From IMG/VR virus record IMGVR_UViG_3300049927_000029, positions 1 to 53,993 of that record: a stretch of DNA of 53,993 bases; one strand, 5' to 3'. A program made the translations under genes and the position numbers. The DNA comes from a virus. Its lineage: Duplodnaviria; Caudoviricetes. Positions 18,373 to 26,021 of this stretch are shown here, one piece after another. Below the pieces are notes generated by a model. That model was given only the letters and a program-made list of their open reading frames with translations, ran no database searches and was not told the DNA's origin. Every line of letters starts with the position of its first letter. Position 1 is the stretch's first letter.

Positions 18373-18840
18373 ATGGCGGGCAAACGGCAGGTAGAAGCGC
18401 GGTGGGGGTTAGAGTTCTGGCAACTGGTGCGGGACTTTGCGGACCAGGGGCTACCACGGTGCGACGTAGCCAAAGCGCTCGGGTATACCCGAGACGGGTT
18501 TTACGCATTGTTGACAGCTAACCCTAGCCGCGACCCTTTCGAAGGCTCAAACATCGTCGCAGCCTACATCCGAGACTCCGGCGAAGGGTTCCGGGAGGCC
18601 TTGGAGCGTATGAGGGACGAAGGCAGGTCATGGGAATATGCCGCAAAGGCGATCGGGTATTGCGACGGTTCAAGGCTGAAGCGGGCCGCGCAAATGCGGG
18701 GGGTGATGATCGAGCTGCGAGGTAAACCGGGAAGGCCGCGAAGCACCGTATCCCGAAAACCAACCGTGTCGAATTTCACCACTAAATGGCCGAGCTGGAA
18801 CAAAGTTTACGCAATGGGGAAATCCAGTGGATCTAAGTAA
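18373..18840 (+). CDS. tandem-HTH DNA-binding protein
   Basis: DVAKALGY and YAAKAIGY HTH-like segments; PGRPR. Confidence 0.6.
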   Translation: MAGKRQVEARWGLEFWQLVRDFADQGLPRCDVAKALGYTRDGFYALLTANPSRDPFEGSNIVAAYIRDSGEGFREALERMRDEGRSWEYAAKAIGYCDGSRLKRAAQMRGVMIELRGKPGRPRSTVSRKPTVSNFTTKWPSWNKVYAMGKSSGSK

Positions 18841-19900
18841 ATGCATTTTCCTCGACACGGAAACGTTCTGCGAAACGCCCATCGGCAATGGTACGCACCG
18901 TTATGCAGAAGGCGCCGAGATCATCATGTGGCAGTGGGCGGTCGGCGATGGGCCTGTAGAGATTCGCGATGGGGATGAAGACATCAGCGACTTGCTGGAA
19001 CTCTTAGAGGATGAAAGTTATGAAGTGGTTATCCACAATTCGGCGTTTGATCGGAATGTCATCAGACACGCCACCGGAATCGGTATCCCCGTCGAGCGAG
19101 TCTTCGACACCATGGTCTGCGCTATGGCCCACTCTCTCCCCGGGAGCCTTTCTACTGTTGGAACCATCCTTGGCGTTGCCCAAGACAAAGCGAAGGATAA
19201 AGAAGGCCGCGCATGGATTGCGCTATTTTGCAAGCCTCAACCGAAGGGGCGGAAGATTCGTCGTGCGACGCGGAGTACACACCCGATAGAGTGGCAACGC
19301 TTCCGCGACTATGGCGGCCTTGACATCGAGGCGATGCGCGAGATCTACAAAAAGCTGCCACGCTGGAACTACCGCGGCGCTGAACGCGAACTGTGGCATC
19401 TCGACCAGAAGATCAACGAACGCGGCGTGCTGATGGACCTGGATCTGGCACATGCCGCAATCCGCGCTTCAGATCGCGCTCAGAAGATCCACGCGGCTGA
19501 TGCAGTGCGTTTGACCGATGGCGCCGTGACCAGCGCCAACCAGCGCGACAAGATGCTGGAGCACATCCTGGAGGCTTACGGCGTCGGGCTCCCCGATTTG
19601 CAGATCAGCACTTTGGAGCGTCGCATTGACGATCCGGATTTGCCGGTTGAGTTACGCGAACTACTGGCCGTCCGGCTGCAGGCCTCTAAAACGTCTGTCA
19701 GCAAGTACAAACGTGCGATCAGCGGTACGAGTAGTGACGGACGCATGCGCGGCACAGCGGCGTTCTGCGGGGCCATCCGCACGGGCAGGTGGGCGGGCCG
19801 GCTACTTCAGCTGCAGAACCTGCCGAGACCTTCTATCAAGAACAAAGAGATCGATCTGTGGATCGAGGCGCTCAAAAATGACGCGGAAGACCTCGTATGA
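18827..19900 (+). CDS. DNA polymerase A, part 1 (3'-5' exonuclease + thumb)
   Basis: FLDTET, HNSAFD, DIEAM, RTGRWAG..QNLPR. Confidence 0.9.
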   Translation: MDLSKCIFLDTETFCETPIGNGTHRYAEGAEIIMWQWAVGDGPVEIRDGDEDISDLLELLEDESYEVVIHNSAFDRNVIRHATGIGIPVERVFDTMVCAMAHSLPGSLSTVGTILGVAQDKAKDKEGRAWIALFCKPQPKGRKIRRATRSTHPIEWQRFRDYGGLDIEAMREIYKKLPRWNYRGAERELWHLDQKINERGVLMDLDLAHAAIRASDRAQKIHAADAVRLTDGAVTSANQRDKMLEHILEAYGVGLPDLQISTLERRIDDPDLPVELRELLAVRLQASKTSVSKYKRAISGTSSDGRMRGTAAFCGAIRTGRWAGRLLQLQNLPRPSIKNKEIDLWIEALKNDAEDLV

Positions 19901-20616
19901 ATTTGATGAAAGGCGATTGCCTGGAAATGATGAAGCTTATTCCGGAGGGCTCTGTGGAAATGGTGCTTTGTGATTTGCCTTACGGTACGACGCAGAACAA
20001 GTGGGACGCAGTTATCCCATTCGACCAGCTTTGGGCGGAATACCGGCGGATTTGCAAAGGCGCGATTGTCTTGACCGCTGCGCAACCTTTCACATCCGCG
20101 CTAGTTATGAGCAACCCTGGACTATTCAAGTACCAATGGGTTTGGGAAAAGAGCGTGGCAACAAACTTCTTGAACGCCAAGAAACAACCGCTGCGCAATC
20201 ACGAAGACGTACTGGTTTTTTATGCTGAGCAGCCTACCTATAACCCTCAAATGGTGCCAGGGGAACGAAAGACATCTAGACGGGTAGGTACGAAGACAAG
20301 CAACTACGGCAAAGCCGATAAGGAAACTTTTTACGATTCGACCGAGCGCTACCCTCTTAGTGTCCAGCGTTTCGGCTCCAGAATTGACGGTGCAGCACTG
20401 CACCCCACCCAAAAGCCTGTCGCGCTAATGGAATACCTGATCCGTACCTACACGAACGAAGGCGACACCGTTCTCGATAACACCATGGGCAGCGGCACCA
20501 CCGGCGTTGCGTGCGTAAACGCAGGCCGGAAATTCATCGGCATTGAGCGCGATGATAAATACTTTGCCATCGCGCAGAAACGTATCGAAGACGCGATGTA
20601 TGGAGACCTCGTATGA
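19897..20616 (+). CDS. beta-class N4-C/N6-A DNA methyltransferase inserted in the polymerase locus
   Basis: DLPYG motif IV, HPTQKPV, DNTMGSGTTG motif I. Confidence 0.9.
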   Translation: MNLMKGDCLEMMKLIPEGSVEMVLCDLPYGTTQNKWDAVIPFDQLWAEYRRICKGAIVLTAAQPFTSALVMSNPGLFKYQWVWEKSVATNFLNAKKQPLRNHEDVLVFYAEQPTYNPQMVPGERKTSRRVGTKTSNYGKADKETFYDSTERYPLSVQRFGSRIDGAALHPTQKPVALMEYLIRTYTNEGDTVLDNTMGSGTTGVACVNAGRKFIGIERDDKYFAIAQKRIEDAMYGDLV

Positions 20617-22460
20617 CGACGGTGATGGAAGCATGCAGCAGTGCGATACGCGGCCTTATAATCGCACCGCCTAAAAAGAAACTGGCTATCGCGGATTTGT
20701 CAAACGTAGAAGGCAGAGTGCTCGCTTGGCTGGCCGGTGAAGCATGGAAGCTCCAGGCGTTCCGTGAGTACGATACGCAGCTCGGATTAGACGGCGTTTG
20801 GTATACAGGCGAAGAGATCAACGCAGAGGCATTGCGAGGGTCACCAATCCCTGTCGAGCTGAACGCTAAAGGCGATCCAGTAACGCTCGGCCACGACCTT
20901 TACAAACTAGCCTACGCCAAGGCTTTCGGCATTGACGCGGCAGATGTCGACGGGTTCATGCGGCAGATCGGCAAGACCATGGAACTCGCTCTCGGGTTCG
21001 GCGGAGGGTGTGGCGCGTTCATTACCTTCTCGCTCGCATTCAACATCGACCTGGAAGCAATGGCGGAGAAGGCTTACGACAACATCCCAAAAAGCACCAT
21101 GGCTGAAGCCGAAAGCTTCCTCGAATGGCAGCTCGGTCAGGGCAAAAGCCAGTTTGGTTTGAGTGATCGCGCGTACACAGTCTGCGAATCCTTTAAACGC
21201 CTGTGGCGCGAATCCCACCCTGCGATCAGCAGCTACTGGAAGGATCTTGAAGAAACAATCCGTCGCGCGATCAACAACCCCGGACAGACATTGACCTGTC
21301 GAATGCATAAGGTTCGTCGGGACGGCGCTTGGCTTCGAGTCATGTTGCCGTCAGGTCGCTACCTCTGCTATCCATCCCCACGCGTAGAGGACGACGGGCA
21401 GATTACTTATATGGGCATTAACCAGTACAGCCGTAAGTGGGAACGCTTGCGCAGCTATGGTGGAAAATTCGTTGAAAACTGCATCGCCGAGGGGACCGAA
21501 GTTCTTACCGAGAAATTCGGATGGCGGGCTATAGAACGTGTGACACCTGATACCAGAGTGTGGGACGGCGACGAATGGGTATCCTTCTCCCATTGTCATT
21601 ACAGCGGTAAACAAACTACTATTCCAACCTACGGCGTTCACATGACGCCTGATCACTTGGTTTTGACCGAAGAGGGTTGGAAGAATGCATCATCGTGCGG
21701 TGGATATAACCGGGCTGCGTGTCGGTTACCTGACGGCTATCAGATACCAGGGTTCGACCGGAAAGAAATCGATGTGGGAAGTGGCGTGCGATTGCGGGAA
21801 AGTCATTCTGATGGACCCTTCCCAGTTGAAGAAGCACGCAAAGAGAGGAGTTCGGTGCTCATGTGGCTGCATGCGCAAAGCTACCCAATCCGAGAGGAGA
21901 ACACGCCACGGCATGAGTCAGCACCCCGCTTTCGCGGTTTGGCGCGCAATGATCGATCGATGCAGGCTACCGACGCATCATGCTTACAAAAACTATGGCG
22001 GTCGGGGAATAACGGTCTGCGACAGATGGCAGGAGTTATTCGAAAACTTCTGGGAAGACATGGGCGAGAAGTACAAACCGGGGCTGACATTGGAGCGCTT
22101 GGACAACTCGTTAGGCTATTCCAAGGAGAACTGCGACTGGCGTACCCGAAAGCACCAAGCGAACAACACTCGGCGCAACCACTGGTTAGAAACGCCACAC
22201 GGCCGGATGACGCTGATGGAAGCTTCCGAGTTCTACGGAGTGGGCTACACGACTTTGATGTACCGCCTGGATCACGAGTGGCCGATAGAACAAGCGCTGA
22301 TACCCGTAGGGTCTTCGACCTTGTTGATTGCGGACCACGCTCTCGGTTTGTTGTGAGAGGCACCGACGGCTTGCCGCTGATCGTCCACAACTGCACGCAG
22401 GCAGCCGCCCGCGATGTCATTGGGCGATCAATGCCGAGGATTGAAGCATGGAGACCGTAA
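20613..22460 (+). CDS. DNA polymerase A, part 2 (motifs A, B), intein-containing
   Basis: [10 protein letters not shown]; [16 protein letters not shown]; YGGKFVEN|intein|CTQAAARD. Confidence 0.9.
21480..22391 (+). mobile_element. intein (304 aa) in DNA polymerase
   Basis: block [11 protein letters not shown], block [10 protein letters not shown], block F VFDL, block G LIVHN|C. Confidence 0.92.
21685..22356 (+). CDS. HNH endonuclease nested in the +1 frame of the polymerase intein
   Basis: [52 protein letters not shown]; GAGGG SD. Confidence 0.9.
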   Translation: MHHRAVDITGLRVGYLTAIRYQGSTGKKSMWEVACDCGKVILMDPSQLKKHAKRGVRCSCGCMRKATQSERRTRHGMSQHPAFAVWRAMIDRCRLPTHHAYKNYGGRGITVCDRWQELFENFWEDMGEKYKPGLTLERLDNSLGYSKENCDWRTRKHQANNTRRNHWLETPHGRMTLMEASEFYGVGYTTLMYRLDHEWPIEQALIPVGSSTLLIADHALGLL

Positions 22461-22645
22461 AGCAGTTCGACCAGGGTTTCGAGATTGTCGTAACGGTACA
22501 CGACGAAATCATTTGTGAGGCGCCAGACGATCCAGCCTTTAGCGATGGGGTTTTAGCCGCCCTCATGGCCCAAGGCGAAGATTGGACAGAAGGCTTACCG
22601 CTCGCCGCAGCCGGCTTCGAAGCGTATCGCTACCGGAAAGGTTGA
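22448..22645 (+). CDS. DNA polymerase A, part 3 (motif C)
   Basis: [30 protein letters not shown]; GAGGA SD at 22436-22440. Confidence 0.85.
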
Positions 22646-22695: not shown

Positions 22696-22705
22696 GTTAA
22701 ATGCG

Positions 22706-22864
22706 ATGCGCGAACAAGTATATTTCGGTCGGCTTTGTCCGAAGCACCCTGAGCTTAAGGGTGAACGCTGGATCAAGTCATACCGCTGCGTTGAATGCCT
22801 GCGGATCTACGCGAAGAAATACCGCGATGCGAAAAAGGAGATCAAAAATGGCGCCGACGCTTAA
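22706..22864 (+). CDS. 52-aa zinc-finger-like protein
   Basis: YFGRLCPKH..ER..YRCVEC; read manually. Confidence 0.5.
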   Translation: MREQVYFGRLCPKHPELKGERWIKSYRCVECLRIYAKKYRDAKKEIKNGADA

Positions 22865-23384
22865 GGGTTTCACTCGCGAGTATTTGGCGTCGCTGTTCTC
22901 CTACGATCCGGAGACCGGGCGGATTACCCGTTTAGTCACTGCGGGGCCCATAGGTCGATACGGCAAAATACTTGAGTCTCCACATAACGCCGGGTACACC
23001 CAGGTCGCGCACAAAGGTAAACGGATGCTACTGCATCGCTTGGCCTACTTCTTACATACCGGAGAAACCCCGCAGGAAATCGATCACATAAACCATGATC
23101 GGAAGAACAACCGCTCCGAGAATTTAAGGGCCGCAACAAGCTCCTTGAATAAATGCAACGCTCCTATTCGGGTGACGAATAGCTCAGGGTTCAAAGGCGT
23201 TTGGTATGACAAGAGCAGGAATCGCTATACGGCTCAGTTTCAGTACCAAGGGGTAAATCGCCGGTTAGGGAGATTCAAAACTGCTGAAGAGGCTGCGCGG
23301 GCGTATGACAGGGCCGCGGTGGAAGCAGTGGGCGAATTCGCATTGACCAACGCAAAAATGGGATTGCTTAAGGAGTGCGTGTGA
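22848..23384 (+). CDS. HNH-AP2 homing endonuclease
   Basis: HRLAY..IDHINHDRKNNRSENLR..SGFKGV..LGRFKTAEEAARAYD; AGGAG SD before 22848. Confidence 0.9.
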   Translation: MAPTLKGFTREYLASLFSYDPETGRITRLVTAGPIGRYGKILESPHNAGYTQVAHKGKRMLLHRLAYFLHTGETPQEIDHINHDRKNNRSENLRAATSSLNKCNAPIRVTNSSGFKGVWYDKSRNRYTAQFQYQGVNRRLGRFKTAEEAARAYDRAAVEAVGEFALTNAKMGLLKECV

Positions 23385-23719
23385 TGCTGGAAAGAGACAT
23401 TGAAGCGCACCTGGTGAAACGGTGTAAGGAGATCGGGGCGCTCGCGGATAAATTTACTTCTCCGAGCCGGCGTTCGGTCCCTGATCGGCTGATCACCTTT
23501 AACGGGCGCGTGCTGTTCGTTGAGCTGAAAGCTACCCGGAAGGAACCGACAGAGGCCCAATACAGAGATCACGACAGACGCAGGGAAGTAGGGGCGGAAG
23601 TTGTGTGGACGGACAGCAAGAAGGGATGTGATTCCTTGTTGCATTCTTTGCAACGCGGCGAAAAGGTGCCGGTCTTCTCAAACTGGCAAGTGCACGAGGA
23701 AATCCACCTTGGCGATTGA
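23384..23719 (+). CDS. VRR-NUC domain nuclease
   Basis: ERDIE..KFTSP..VPDRL..FVELKA..Q. Confidence 0.85.
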   Translation: MLERDIEAHLVKRCKEIGALADKFTSPSRRSVPDRLITFNGRVLFVELKATRKEPTEAQYRDHDRRREVGAEVVWTDSKKGCDSLLHSLQRGEKVPVFSNWQVHEEIHLGD

Positions 23720-26021
23720 ATACAAACCGCACGCCTATCAAGGGCTAATCATGTCCGCTATCCATGCGACCAGGCGTTTGGCCGTGTGGGCCGGAATGGG
23801 GCTCGGCAAGTCGGTCAGCACGGCCACGGCGCTGGAAGACCTTTCGCTTACTGAGGATGTCTATCCGGTCTTGATCGTCGCACCGTTGCGCGTAGCGCGT
23901 ACCACTTGGCCGCAGGAGTACCAGAAGTGGACCCACCTTAAGCATCGCCGTGTCGTGACGATCTGCGGCGCGCTCAAGGAACGTCAAGCGGCGCTACGCA
24001 TGAAGGCTGATGTCTACACGGTCAACTTCGAGCAGCTTGAATGGCTGGTCGAGCAGCTAGGCGACAAATGGCCGTTCCGCACAGTGGTAGTCGACGAAGC
24101 AACCAAGCTCAAGGGTTTCCGGCTGCGTCAAGGTACGCGACGCGCTAAAGCCCTGGCCCGAGTTGCACATACCAAGATCAAGCGCATCATTCTGCTGACC
24201 GGTACGCCGAGCCCTAACGGTCTCCAAGACCTTTGGGGGCAGATGTGGTTCGTTGATAAGGGTGATCGTCTCGGGCGCACCTACGACGCCTTTAAGCAAC
24301 GCTGGTTCCGCGCTTCGCATACCGGGTTTGGCGTAGAAGCCACAGATCAAGCGCAAGAGCAGATCCAAAAAGCGTTAGGTGACGTGTGTATCACGATTGA
24401 CGCCGCAGATTGGTTCGACCTAAAAGAGCCGATCGTGAACGTGATCCGCGTAGAGCTGCCCTCGGCCGCACGCGTCCTTTACAAGAACATGGAAAAGCAA
24501 ATGTTCATGGACCTTGAAGGGTCGCAGGTTGAGGCGTTGAATGCCGCCGCTAAGACGCAGAAGTGCATCGCGGAAGGTACTGAAATCCTGACCGACTCCG
24601 GCTGGAAACCGATTGAGCGATTCGCCCAAGGGGATCTGGTGTGGGATGGGGTCGAATGGGTAAGTGTCTACAAATTAGCTTGCCACGGCTATAAGTCTGT
24701 CGTAGATTGCTTCGGAGTCACCATGACGCCAGACCACAAGGTGCTGACCGTCGAAGGGTGGAAAACCGCCGAGGAGATAAACAATGACGGTACAGTTGAC
24801 AGGCAAAGTGTTCGGCTACCTGACAGTGCTGGGGCGCTCGGGGTCCACGGACACCATAGCGCGGAGAGCGCTATGGGAAGCGCAATGCGTGTGCGGGAAG
24901 GTCATAACGTGCATCGGTACAAATCTGCGCAACCCCAACAGGGGAGAGAAGAAGTCTTGCGGGTGCAAGCGCCGGGAAATGCTCTTGGATGCTTGGGGTA
25001 CTCACGGCATGTCGAAGCACAGGGCTTTCCACACGTGGAGCAACATGAAATCCAGGTGCAGCAACCCAAACGACAAAGACTGGCCCAATTACGGCGGTCG
25101 GGGAATTTCGGTTTGCGAACGGTGGCGCGATTCGTTCGACGCTTTTTGGGAAGACATGGGCTCGACTTATTCGGACGATCTTACGATCGAGCGCAAGAAC
25201 AACAATGGCAATTATCAGGCAGACAACTGTCGATGGGCTACGGTTCGGGAGCAATCAAACAACACACGCTTCAACGTATGGCTGAATACTCCGGCGGGGC
25301 GTATGACGGTTGCGCAGGCGGCCAGGTTCTACGATATCAAGACTGTAACGCTTCGGGCCAGGTTGAAGAAAGGATGGCCGGTACTACGGGCGTTAGGCTT
25401 GTCTACGACCTTATCAACGCGGGTCCAAGACACCGCTTTACCGTTCGAGGAACAGACGGTAAGCCATTGATTGTCCACAATTGTTTACAAATTGCCAGCG
25501 GAGCGGCATATGTGGAAGGCGGACCGCAGTGGAAAAAGATTCATGACGAGAAGCTGAACGCATTGGAGGAAATCCTCGAAGAAGCTGCCGGCATGCCGGT
25601 GCTCGTGGCCTACAACTTTAAAAGCGATCTGGCGAGGCTCTTGGCGCGCTTCCCCCAAGGCCGACACCTGGACAAGAAGCCGGAGACGATCGACGCGTGG
25701 AACGCCGGAGAGATCCCGATCATGTTCGCCCACCCGGCCAGCGCTGGTCACGGTTTGAACCTGCAGGACGGGGGCAATATTCTGGTGTTCTTCAGCGTCA
25801 ACTGGAACTTGGAGGAGCATCAACAAATCATCGAGCGTAACGGGCCGGTGCGCCAACTGCAGGCTGGCCACAACCGCCCGGTGTTCCACCACTTCATCCT
25901 GGCCGCTGACACCGTGGACGAACTGGTATTGGAGCGCCTGCAGACCAAACGAGAGGTGCAGGAGATACTTCTAAAAGCGATGAGGGATAACGGATTTAAC
26001 CCTATAGAGGACGCGGCATGA
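23709..26021 (+). CDS. SNF2-like helicase, intein-containing
   Basis: GMGLGKS, VVDEAT, LTGTP, HPASAGHGLNLQ; TTG start at 23709 with GAGGA SD. Confidence 0.9.
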   Translation: MAIEYKPHAYQGLIMSAIHATRRLAVWAGMGLGKSVSTATALEDLSLTEDVYPVLIVAPLRVARTTWPQEYQKWTHLKHRRVVTICGALKERQAALRMKADVYTVNFEQLEWLVEQLGDKWPFRTVVVDEATKLKGFRLRQGTRRAKALARVAHTKIKRIILLTGTPSPNGLQDLWGQMWFVDKGDRLGRTYDAFKQRWFRASHTGFGVEATDQAQEQIQKALGDVCITIDAADWFDLKEPIVNVIRVELPSAARVLYKNMEKQMFMDLEGSQVEALNAAAKTQKCIAEGTEILTDSGWKPIERFAQGDLVWDGVEWVSVYKLACHGYKSVVDCFGVTMTPDHKVLTVEGWKTAEEINNDGTVDRQSVRLPDSAGALGVHGHHSAESAMGSAMRVREGHNVHRYKSAQPQQGREEVLRVQAPGNALGCLGYSRHVEAQGFPHVEQHEIQVQQPKRQRLAQLRRSGNFGLRTVARFVRRFLGRHGLDLFGRSYDRAQEQQWQLSGRQLSMGYGSGAIKQHTLQRMAEYSGGAYDGCAGGQVLRYQDCNASGQVEERMAGTTGVRLVYDLINAGPRHRFTVRGTDGKPLIVHNCLQIASGAAYVEGGPQWKKIHDEKLNALEEILEEAAGMPVLVAYNFKSDLARLLARFPQGRHLDKKPETIDAWNAGEIPIMFAHPASAGHGLNLQDGGNILVFFSVNWNLEEHQQIIERNGPVRQLQAGHNRPVFHHFILAADTVDELVLERLQTKREVQEILLKAMRDNGFNPIEDAA
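24564..25481 (+). mobile_element. intein (306 aa) in helicase
   Basis: KTQK|CIAEGTEILT..MTPDHKVLT..VYDL..LIVHN|CLQIASG. Confidence 0.92.
24784..25470 (+). CDS. HNH endonuclease nested in the +1 frame of the helicase intein
   Basis: CVCG..SCGC..HGMS..W.NMK.RC..YGGRGISVCERW..DMG..TIERKNNNGNY..NCRW..QSNN; GAGGAG SD. Confidence 0.9.
   Translation: MTVQLTGKVFGYLTVLGRSGSTDTIARRALWEAQCVCGKVITCIGTNLRNPNRGEKKSCGCKRREMLLDAWGTHGMSKHRAFHTWSNMKSRCSNPNDKDWPNYGGRGISVCERWRDSFDAFWEDMGSTYSDDLTIERKNNNGNYQADNCRWATVREQSNNTRFNVWLNTPAGRMTVAQAARFYDIKTVTLRARLKKGWPVLRALGLSTTLSTRVQDTALPFEEQTVSH

Follow-up and report, generated by a model that had tools for sequence, protein, structure and literature searches.

A phage DNA polymerase intein with an endonuclease-family gene overprinted in its +1 reading frame, a further member of a described layout

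Inteins whose homing endonuclease is read in a frame other than that of the intein are already on record. Actinobacteriophage inteins with the homing endonuclease in a separate reading frame were reported by Gosselin, Arsenault and Gogarten (bioRxiv 10.1101/2025.01.02.630785); the accessible text of that preprint relates these endonucleases to free-standing phage ones and proposes a free-standing gene invading an intein as their origin. The accessible portion of a second preprint (bioRxiv 10.64898/2026.09.14.751524) describes a cyanobacterial dnaX intein with an out-of-frame LAGLIDADG endonuclease, credits Gorbalenya 1998 and reads the layout as the secondary invasion of a mini-intein. A brucellaphage TerL intein with an out-of-frame HNH is mentioned in passing in PMC4422536 (Virol J 2015), with no evolutionary test in the part of the article that was available. 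Here we describe an element of this layout in IMG/VR virus record IMGVR_UViG_3300049927_000029 (Duplodnaviria; Caudoviricetes), the complete record of 53,993 bp being the window of the analysis. An intein of 304 codons (intein 1) interrupts a family-A DNA polymerase (PolA) gene, and its middle is overlapped in the +1 frame by an open reading frame (ORF) for a protein of a homing-endonuclease family (nested ORF 1). We call this unit copy 1; a paralogous unit, copy 2, lies in an SNF2-family helicase gene of the same genome. Most probably the element is a class-1 intein that is mobile and has its homing-endonuclease gene overprinted, as a cistron of its own, in the +1 frame of the intein middle.

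The locus can be compared with each of the described systems. In the Hamiltonella phage APSE-1 (NC_000935), P45 contains a homologous intein in the same polymerase motif, and P46 is the homologous nested ORF, also in frame +1, with 51% identity and the same start context. The APSE-1 RefSeq record places P46 inside P45 and annotates it as 'HNH endonuclease'. The insertion register in APSE-1 is three codons off, YGGKS/CENICQ as compared with YGGKFVEN/CTQ in the phage studied here (slashes mark the splice junctions), and the P46 of RefSeq is 140 aa long from an internal ATG, the open frame being 216 aa from a GTG. For the actinophage cases, the accessible text of the preprint gives the one same-strand endonuclease as endonuclease VII-like in 'reading frame 3' and the others as antisense LAGLIDADG or VSR-like. 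In contrast, the gene described here is of the PHROG 374 type, lies in +1 (+2 in relatives), and has PolA and SNF2 as its host genes, the phages being relatives of Proteobacteria phages. The word 'APSE' is absent from the text of that preprint. The dnaX intein, as far as its accessible description goes, resembles intein 1 in having a same-strand overlapping ORF (+2), a low omega in the endonuclease frame and a relaxed intein frame. It differs in that the endonuclease is LAGLIDADG rather than HNH-like and the host gene is cellular rather than phage, and the available sections contain no analysis of stop avoidance or start codons. The brucellaphage case, set side by side by its description in the available part of the article, has terminase as the host gene as compared with PolA and SNF2 here. 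Fractured genes with split inteins (Dassa et al. 2009, PMC2677866), according to the portion of the article at hand, share with the present locus an endonuclease gene that is translated separately and flanked by the two splicing halves, N- and C-terminal. In those genes, however, two ORFs make up the interrupted host frame and the splicing is in trans, whereas here the frame reads through and splicing would be in cis.

The initial annotation of the locus had proposed a third intein architecture. As an undescribed one, it does not hold in view of the APSE-1 P45/P46 record and the published out-of-frame intein endonucleases. The layout is already described, the phage is a further member of it, and no new field is opened because the concept is already in print. 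What the locus adds is a member of a PHROG-374-type subfamily that occupies PolA and SNF2 genes in relatives of Proteobacteria phages, a genome with two copies that have diverged deeply, and quantitative tests of stop avoidance and start conservation.

The coordinates of both units are given in Table 1. In the polymerase ORF the junctions read ...YGGKFVEN/CIAEGTEV...PLIVHN/CTQAAARD; the insert starts with CIAEGTEV, contains MTPDH and VFDL, and ends with PLIVHN followed by Cys. The site is uninterrupted in Bordetella phage BPP-1 (YGGKL-AENVTQAASRD), and the four closest polymerase relatives in IMG/VR (L093-L096, with 87-94% identity over 289 aa) read GGKCVEN/CTQAAARD with no insert. Alignments used 40 of 49 non-duplicate rows, L010, L025, L034, L049, L056, L072 and the +2 loci L070, L071 and L082 being left out. 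C1, T56 and H59 of TPDH, D280 of VFDL, and H303-N304 are invariant in the 40 sequences. The Cys+1 residue is present in 55/55 rows and the HN end in 54/55, the remaining one being a decayed row (L049) that ends in SN. The 304-aa intein and its splicing motifs were placed exactly by the initial annotation. Its description of the middle as R/G/S-rich and free of an in-frame endonuclease was also correct: residues 70-275 contain 12.6% R, 9.7% G, 9.2% A and 8.7% S, and the single Pfam match of the whole host ORF was a weak one to DNA_pol_A, with no endonuclease domain recognized in this frame.

Table 1. Positions of the two intein units and their host genes in the window.
Feature	Coordinates	Strand	Remarks
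Host gene 1, middle ORF of the fragmented family-A DNA polymerase (motif A region to QAAARD motif)	20613..22460	+	collinear with APSE-1 P45 and BPP-1 Bbp42
Intein 1, class-1 type (Cys1 ... His-Asn / Cys+1), 304 codons, stop-free	21480..22391	+	motifs, empty sites, AlphaFold2/Foldseek predicted Hint fold
N-terminal splicing region, blocks A and B, intein frame only	21480..21684	+	pLDDT 94-98; substitutions mostly at intein position 3
Shine-Dalgarno-like GAGGG, 8 nt before the nested ATG, from intein E-G codons	21672..21676	+	
Nested ORF 1, frame +1 relative to the host ORF, 223 aa, ATG start, HNH-like (putative beta-beta-alpha-metal variant) homing-endonuclease-family protein	21685..22356	+	
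C-terminal splicing region, blocks F and G	22311..22391	+	pLDDT 88-96; first 46 nt overlapped by the unconserved tail of nested ORF 1
+1 extein Cys codon (TGC)	22392..22394	+	Cys also in intein-free alleles L093-L096
Host gene 2, SNF2-family helicase	23601..26021	+	SNF2-rel_dom, E 3.5e-17
Intein 2, 306 codons, AKTQK/CIAEGTEILT...PLIVHN/CLQIASG, paralogue of intein 1	24564..25481	+	
Shine-Dalgarno-like GAGGAG, 7 nt upstream of nested start 2	24771..24776	+	
Nested ORF 2, frame +1, 228 aa	24784..25470	+	PHROG 374, E 4.8e-58

The intein frame was modeled with AlphaFold2 on the 40-sequence alignment. Its predicted local distance difference test score (pLDDT) is 94-98 over residues 1-85, 88-96 over residues 272-304, and below 50 over most of residues 95-270, where a weak helix is seen at about 167-194 (pLDDT 51-61). 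The best Foldseek matches of this model are mini-inteins, 6frg (E 4.7e-4), 5i0a, 3ifj and 7cfv, all with a probability of 1.00; the mini-inteins matched are those of Ssp DnaB, Mtu RecA and DnaX. The intein frame is confidently predicted to consist of a Hint fold and a disordered middle. A long intein 'linker' of this kind is no place to search for an in-frame endonuclease.

How common, then, is the out-of-frame layout? A pattern scan of IMG/VR gave 133 relatives confirmed by tblastn, and the counts that follow cover the best 80 of the 133. The endonuclease frame is +1 in 63 loci and +2 in nine; in eight loci no endonuclease was detected, and in none is it in frame with the intein. Among the eight, L055 contains by eye a diverged +2 ORF of the same family, L052, L079 and L081 are mini-inteins, and four are cut by contig ends. 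The layout is accordingly common, being present in 72 of the best 80 related loci and in the cultured phages APSE-1 (+1), Caulobacter phage GB2A (+1) and Salmonella phage LP31 (+2). Of the 53 loci that have a nested hit as well as a full-length match to the intein, 51 are stop-free in the intein frame, with stops only in L034 and L049, and 51 have a nested ORF of 180 aa or more. Whether both frames stay open among homologues was a check proposed by the initial annotation, and these counts show that they do in nearly all. In the GenBank/RefSeq records of GB2A (L085) and LP31 (L086) only the polymerase is annotated; the nested ORFs (+1 with 219 codons open and +2 with 248 codons open, respectively) are unannotated, showing that the nested gene is missed by annotation pipelines.

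The distribution of the intein among close relatives is sporadic. The nearest intein (L005, on the same contig as L104) is in a polymerase 70% identical to that of the phage studied, with a nested protein 85% identical. The L106 contig, which is the same as that of L017, has the helicase intein and no polymerase intein. Differential loss of the intein among APSE polymerases has been reported (PMC7313666). Sporadic presence among close relatives is the usual signature of a homing element and suggests that these units would move by homing.

Selection on the two frames was examined first through stop avoidance. The synonymous codons of the nested ORF were shuffled 2000 times and stops in the intein frame were counted. 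Copy 1 has no intein-frame stop as compared with a mean of 6.2 after shuffling, only 2/2000 shuffles being stop-free (P(0) = 0.001), and its third frame contains 17 stops. The avoidance of stop-creating codon combinations in the nested ORF, which the initial annotation had raised, is evident from these numbers. Copy 2 has no stop as compared with 7.7 expected, and 0/2000 shuffles were stop-free. The same holds for 45/45 non-duplicate units, with zero intein-frame stops against a shuffled mean of 6.0, a median P(0) of 0.0005 and a mean of 12 stops in the third frame; this set left out L010 and L025 (short nested ORFs), L034 and L049 (intein-frame stops) and six exact duplicates. In six free-standing homologues the corresponding frame contains 3, 37, 9, 17, 22 and 18 stops, the annotated coding sequence being used for the L092 control. 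These comparisons indicate that the intein frame is kept open by selection.

Codon-position differences locate the stronger constraint within the overlap. Against L005, the nearest relative, with which the alignment is gap-free, the differences at intein codon positions 1/2/3 are 4/1/24 in the N-terminal splicing region, 81/26/22 in the dual-coded stretch, where intein position 1 is nested-frame position 3, and 2/0/5 in the C-terminal block, where the excess returns to intein position 3. Over the overlap, the amino-acid identity to L005 amounts to 57% for the intein frame as compared with 84.5% for the nested one. Ten disjoint pairs with 68-98.5% DNA identity gave 96/74/270, 678/283/223 and 32/14/66 for the same three regions. 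The switch of codon position means that, where the two frames overlap, purifying selection acts on that of the endonuclease and is relaxed on that of the intein. The locus is a clean example of dual coding in which one frame is selected only for the absence of stops and its meaningless product would be removed by protein splicing.

The nested protein was assigned through its family profiles. Nested ORF 1 matches PHROG 374 at E 7.5e-57, and PHROG 374, 3377, 2081 and 953, all named 'HNH endonuclease', match the nested protein with E values from 7.5e-57 to 2.7e-16. Hits to the PHROG 374-type family occur in 1042 phage records, mostly as free-standing genes. The protein contains an N-terminal CxC...CGC cluster and a C-terminal helix-turn-helix (HTH), the latter recognized by HTH models. 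The AlphaFold2 model of nested ORF 1 has a mean pLDDT of 88.1, with tail residues 217-223 below 50; this poorly predicted tail is the part that overlaps block F of the intein. The layout supports the view that inteins gain mobility genes through invasion by free-standing endonuclease genes.

Several observations weigh against the reading of a mobile intein with an overprinted endonuclease gene. The polymerase is spread over three ORFs in the phage, so that its functionality in the phage is itself presumed. Decay-like exceptions exist among the relatives: L034 and L049 with intein-frame stops, L010 with a nested ORF truncated to 46 aa, and L025 with one of 155 aa. Pfam and NCBIfam give no Hint domain for intein 1, and their sole hit for intein 2 is TIGR01445 at E 0.046, below its cut-off; the call of intein 1 therefore rests on the motifs, the empty sites of relatives and the predicted fold. 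Pfam HNH models match 0/40 nested proteins, the only Pfam matches being C-terminal HTH models, and a Foldseek search of the PDB with the nested model had no hit at E ≤0.001. The sole link to a structural family is a weak profile match to I-HmuI (1u3e), E 0.008, over the beta-beta-alpha-metal motif. This match spans strands 135-138 and 150-153 and the following helix 155-160 of the AlphaFold2 model, and within it the residue of I-HmuI that closes strand 1 and acts as the general base, the first His of H-N-H, aligns to Arg138. An hhalign comparison of the nested family with the HNH_3-AP2 protein of the same phage gave only a spurious HTH-like stretch.

The Arg residue deserves closer consideration. 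Arg138 is invariant in 40/40 nested proteins, in 6/6 free-standing homologues and in the APSE-1, GB2A and LP31 copies. N149 and N161, corresponding to the structural Asn and the metal-ligand Asn, are also invariant, and the acidic residue before the base, at position 137, is D in 27 of the 40 proteins and E in 12, with G in the remaining one. The replacement of His by Arg at the general-base position means that catalysis may be unconventional or absent, and the invariant Arg and Asn pattern defines the family as a D/E-R...N...N variant. The initial annotation had called the nested ORF a complete 223-aa HNH endonuclease with its own Shine-Dalgarno sequence. The ORF, the ATG and the GAGGG at 8 nt were all found as described; 'complete HNH' was too strong, given Arg in place of His and no Pfam HNH match. 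The Arg caveat lowers the claim of a canonical HNH enzyme, not that of a selected, folded, DNA-binding protein of an endonuclease family.

Could the nested ORF be a non-catalytic or decaying relic, with the intein kept by vertical descent? The invariant Arg, the lack of a Pfam HNH hit, the truncated nested ORFs of L010 and L025 and the mini-inteins L052, L079 and L081 would all fit such an explanation. The Arg, however, is common to the whole free-standing family, which has hits in 1042 phage records, and this makes it a family trait and not a mark of decay. The nested frame is under strong purifying selection and has a confident predicted fold, and the intein is missing from the closest extein relatives while present in a more distant one. 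We consider a relic decidedly unlikely.

The start of the nested ORF bears on how it would be translated. The GAGGG and the nested start sit within the codons for EEGWKNA of the intein frame. The start codon falls at one shared alignment column in 35/40 nested ORFs (22 ATG, 12 GTG and one TTG), and in the remaining five an ATG precedes the anchor residue by 3, 11 or 16 codons. By a loose criterion, a purine-rich Shine-Dalgarno-like tetramer precedes the nested start in 37/40. In most polymerase-borne copies, copy 1 included, it is formed by the conserved T-x-E/K-G-W codons of the intein; in the helicase-borne ones, of which copy 2 is an example, it is formed by E-E codons situated a few residues further downstream. 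These features point to an independent internal initiation of the nested ORF. The alternative is programmed ribosomal frameshifting from the intein frame, by which the endonuclease would be fused to the N-extein and N-intein and no separate cistron would exist. The nested frame is on the same strand, overlaps the host frame and is open for six codons upstream of its start, which would fit frameshifting. An in-frame TGA six codons upstream, however, leaves a window of only 18 nt, in which no slippery heptamer was seen. For the RNA surrounding the nested start (21635..21735) the folding z score was +0.87, with no significant structure and no sign of a regulatory hairpin. The conserved start column and the Shine-Dalgarno-like motif also argue against frameshifting, and the occurrence of the gene in +1 or +2 among relatives is unexplained by a single frameshift mechanism. 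Frameshifting is therefore a very improbable explanation. Taken with the selection results, the comparative evidence and the models support well the mechanistic logic of the initial annotation: the intein frame would be a stop-free spacer to be removed by splicing, and the endonuclease would be made from a gene of its own, which is under purifying selection and has a conserved start.

A further alternative is that the insert stays unspliced as a tolerated in-frame loop, like the out-of-frame HNH insertion in the ShiLan methylase, as given in the accessible text of PMC11855218. The missing database Hint call for intein 1 would be consistent with this. Yet all of the 40 aligned sequences have Cys1, TxxH, the Asp of block F, the His-Asn end and Cys+1, mini-inteins are the matches of the predicted fold, and the insert interrupts a conserved polymerase motif where a loop of 304 residues is unlikely to be tolerated, all of which makes an unspliced loop barely credible. 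A sequencing or assembly artefact, in which two compensating indels have displaced a canonical in-frame HNH endonuclease, has a negligible likelihood and was rejected, nothing having been found in its favour. A second assembler, applied to the run that is the likely source, gave an identical contig with 0 gaps, which reveals no compensating indels of the kind that the initial annotation had named as a refutation; of the sequencing runs listed, one contains the whole stretch, perhaps as the source sample, and no RNA run does. Both copies in the genome have the identical +1 offset, the endonuclease is out of frame in 72 and in frame in none of the 80 independent metagenomic loci, APSE-1, GB2A and LP31 show the same layout in finished genomes, and stop avoidance in the intein frame is under selection.

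What would a mobile intein with an overprinted cistron look like at work? Ribosomes translating the polymerase would cross about 620 nt of dual-coded DNA and produce a disordered linker of about 185 residues, functionless save for the requirement that it be stop-free. The two Hint halves (residues 1-85 and 272-304) would then assemble, excise the whole insert and ligate YGGKFVEN to CTQAAARD, by which the conserved polymerase motif would be restored. A separate initiation at the ATG at 21685 behind the GAGGG would yield the 223-aa HNH-family DNA-binding nuclease. This protein would presumably cut or nick intein-free polymerase alleles during co-infection, and repair would copy the whole unit into them. 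The paralogous unit would act likewise in the SNF2 helicase gene.

The helicase-borne unit is well separated from the polymerase-borne one. Nested proteins 1 and 2 are 44% identical (E 1e-64) and the intein-frame products are 35% identical; in the tree of nested proteins the helicase-borne and polymerase-borne clades split at 100/100 support. A recent intragenomic duplication as the source of the two copies was rejected on the basis of this identity and of the separation of the clades.

Insertion registers vary within both host motifs. The PolA motif hosts at least three intein registers, 1-4 codons apart (YGGKxxEN/C, YGGKL/CEN and YGGK/CVEN), and the SNF2 motif hosts three (KTQK/CLQ, LLQIS/CG and CLQF/CN). 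In the nested-protein tree the K/CVEN register forms one clade (100/98), and the EN/C and KL/CEN registers are interleaved. Close relatives free of the intein have the sequence GGK-C-VEN-C-TQ, in which two of the registers coincide with a Cys, and these Cys residues may be footprints of past inteins. Repeated small register shifts might offer these elements a regular route to new insertion sites. A bolder combination would join that route to a family that either, if it does drive homing, forms an 'R-N-N' branch with a mechanism of its own among the His-Me finger nucleases, or consists of DNA-binding or nicking factors needing a partner; this combination we regard as tentative and rather unlikely. 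A second, upstream intein N-terminal block is present in some related polymerases (L010, L011, L021, L024 and L040), with a nested endonuclease hit beside it in L010, L011, L021 and L040, not in L024. A further polymerase insertion site, ..LA/CGYQGGVGA, is occupied in L056, L072, L071 and L082. The polymerase of L079 (176-3466) contains a mini-intein of the family with no endonuclease and, upstream, a separate intein with an apparent in-frame LAGLIDADG-type domain, as judged by eye.

The surrounding replication module contains other interruptions. A DNA methyltransferase gene (19897..20616) separates the exonuclease part of the polymerase (18827..19900) from the polymerase part (20613..), with ATGA overlaps. 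At this junction the two halves abut as separate ORFs with no insert in L094, L098, L099 and L103; a methyltransferase occupies it in L097, L108 and L115, and other inserts of 0.5-1.2 kb are found there, for example in L093 and L100. The exonuclease/polymerase junction looks like an insertion hot spot. Polymerase motif C (VHDE) is on a separate ORF of 65 aa (22448..22645), which has a 13-nt overlap with the end of the intein-bearing ORF. The closest relatives, L093-L096, share its frame change, as do L112, L113 and L123, and it is therefore not a sequencing error in the record; in more distant relatives, for example L098-L111, motif C is in frame. Directly downstream of the polymerase lies a free-standing HNH_3 and AP2 endonuclease gene (22701-23384; Pfam E 3.2e-12 and 2.1e-9), the third mobile-element-type gene of the replication module.

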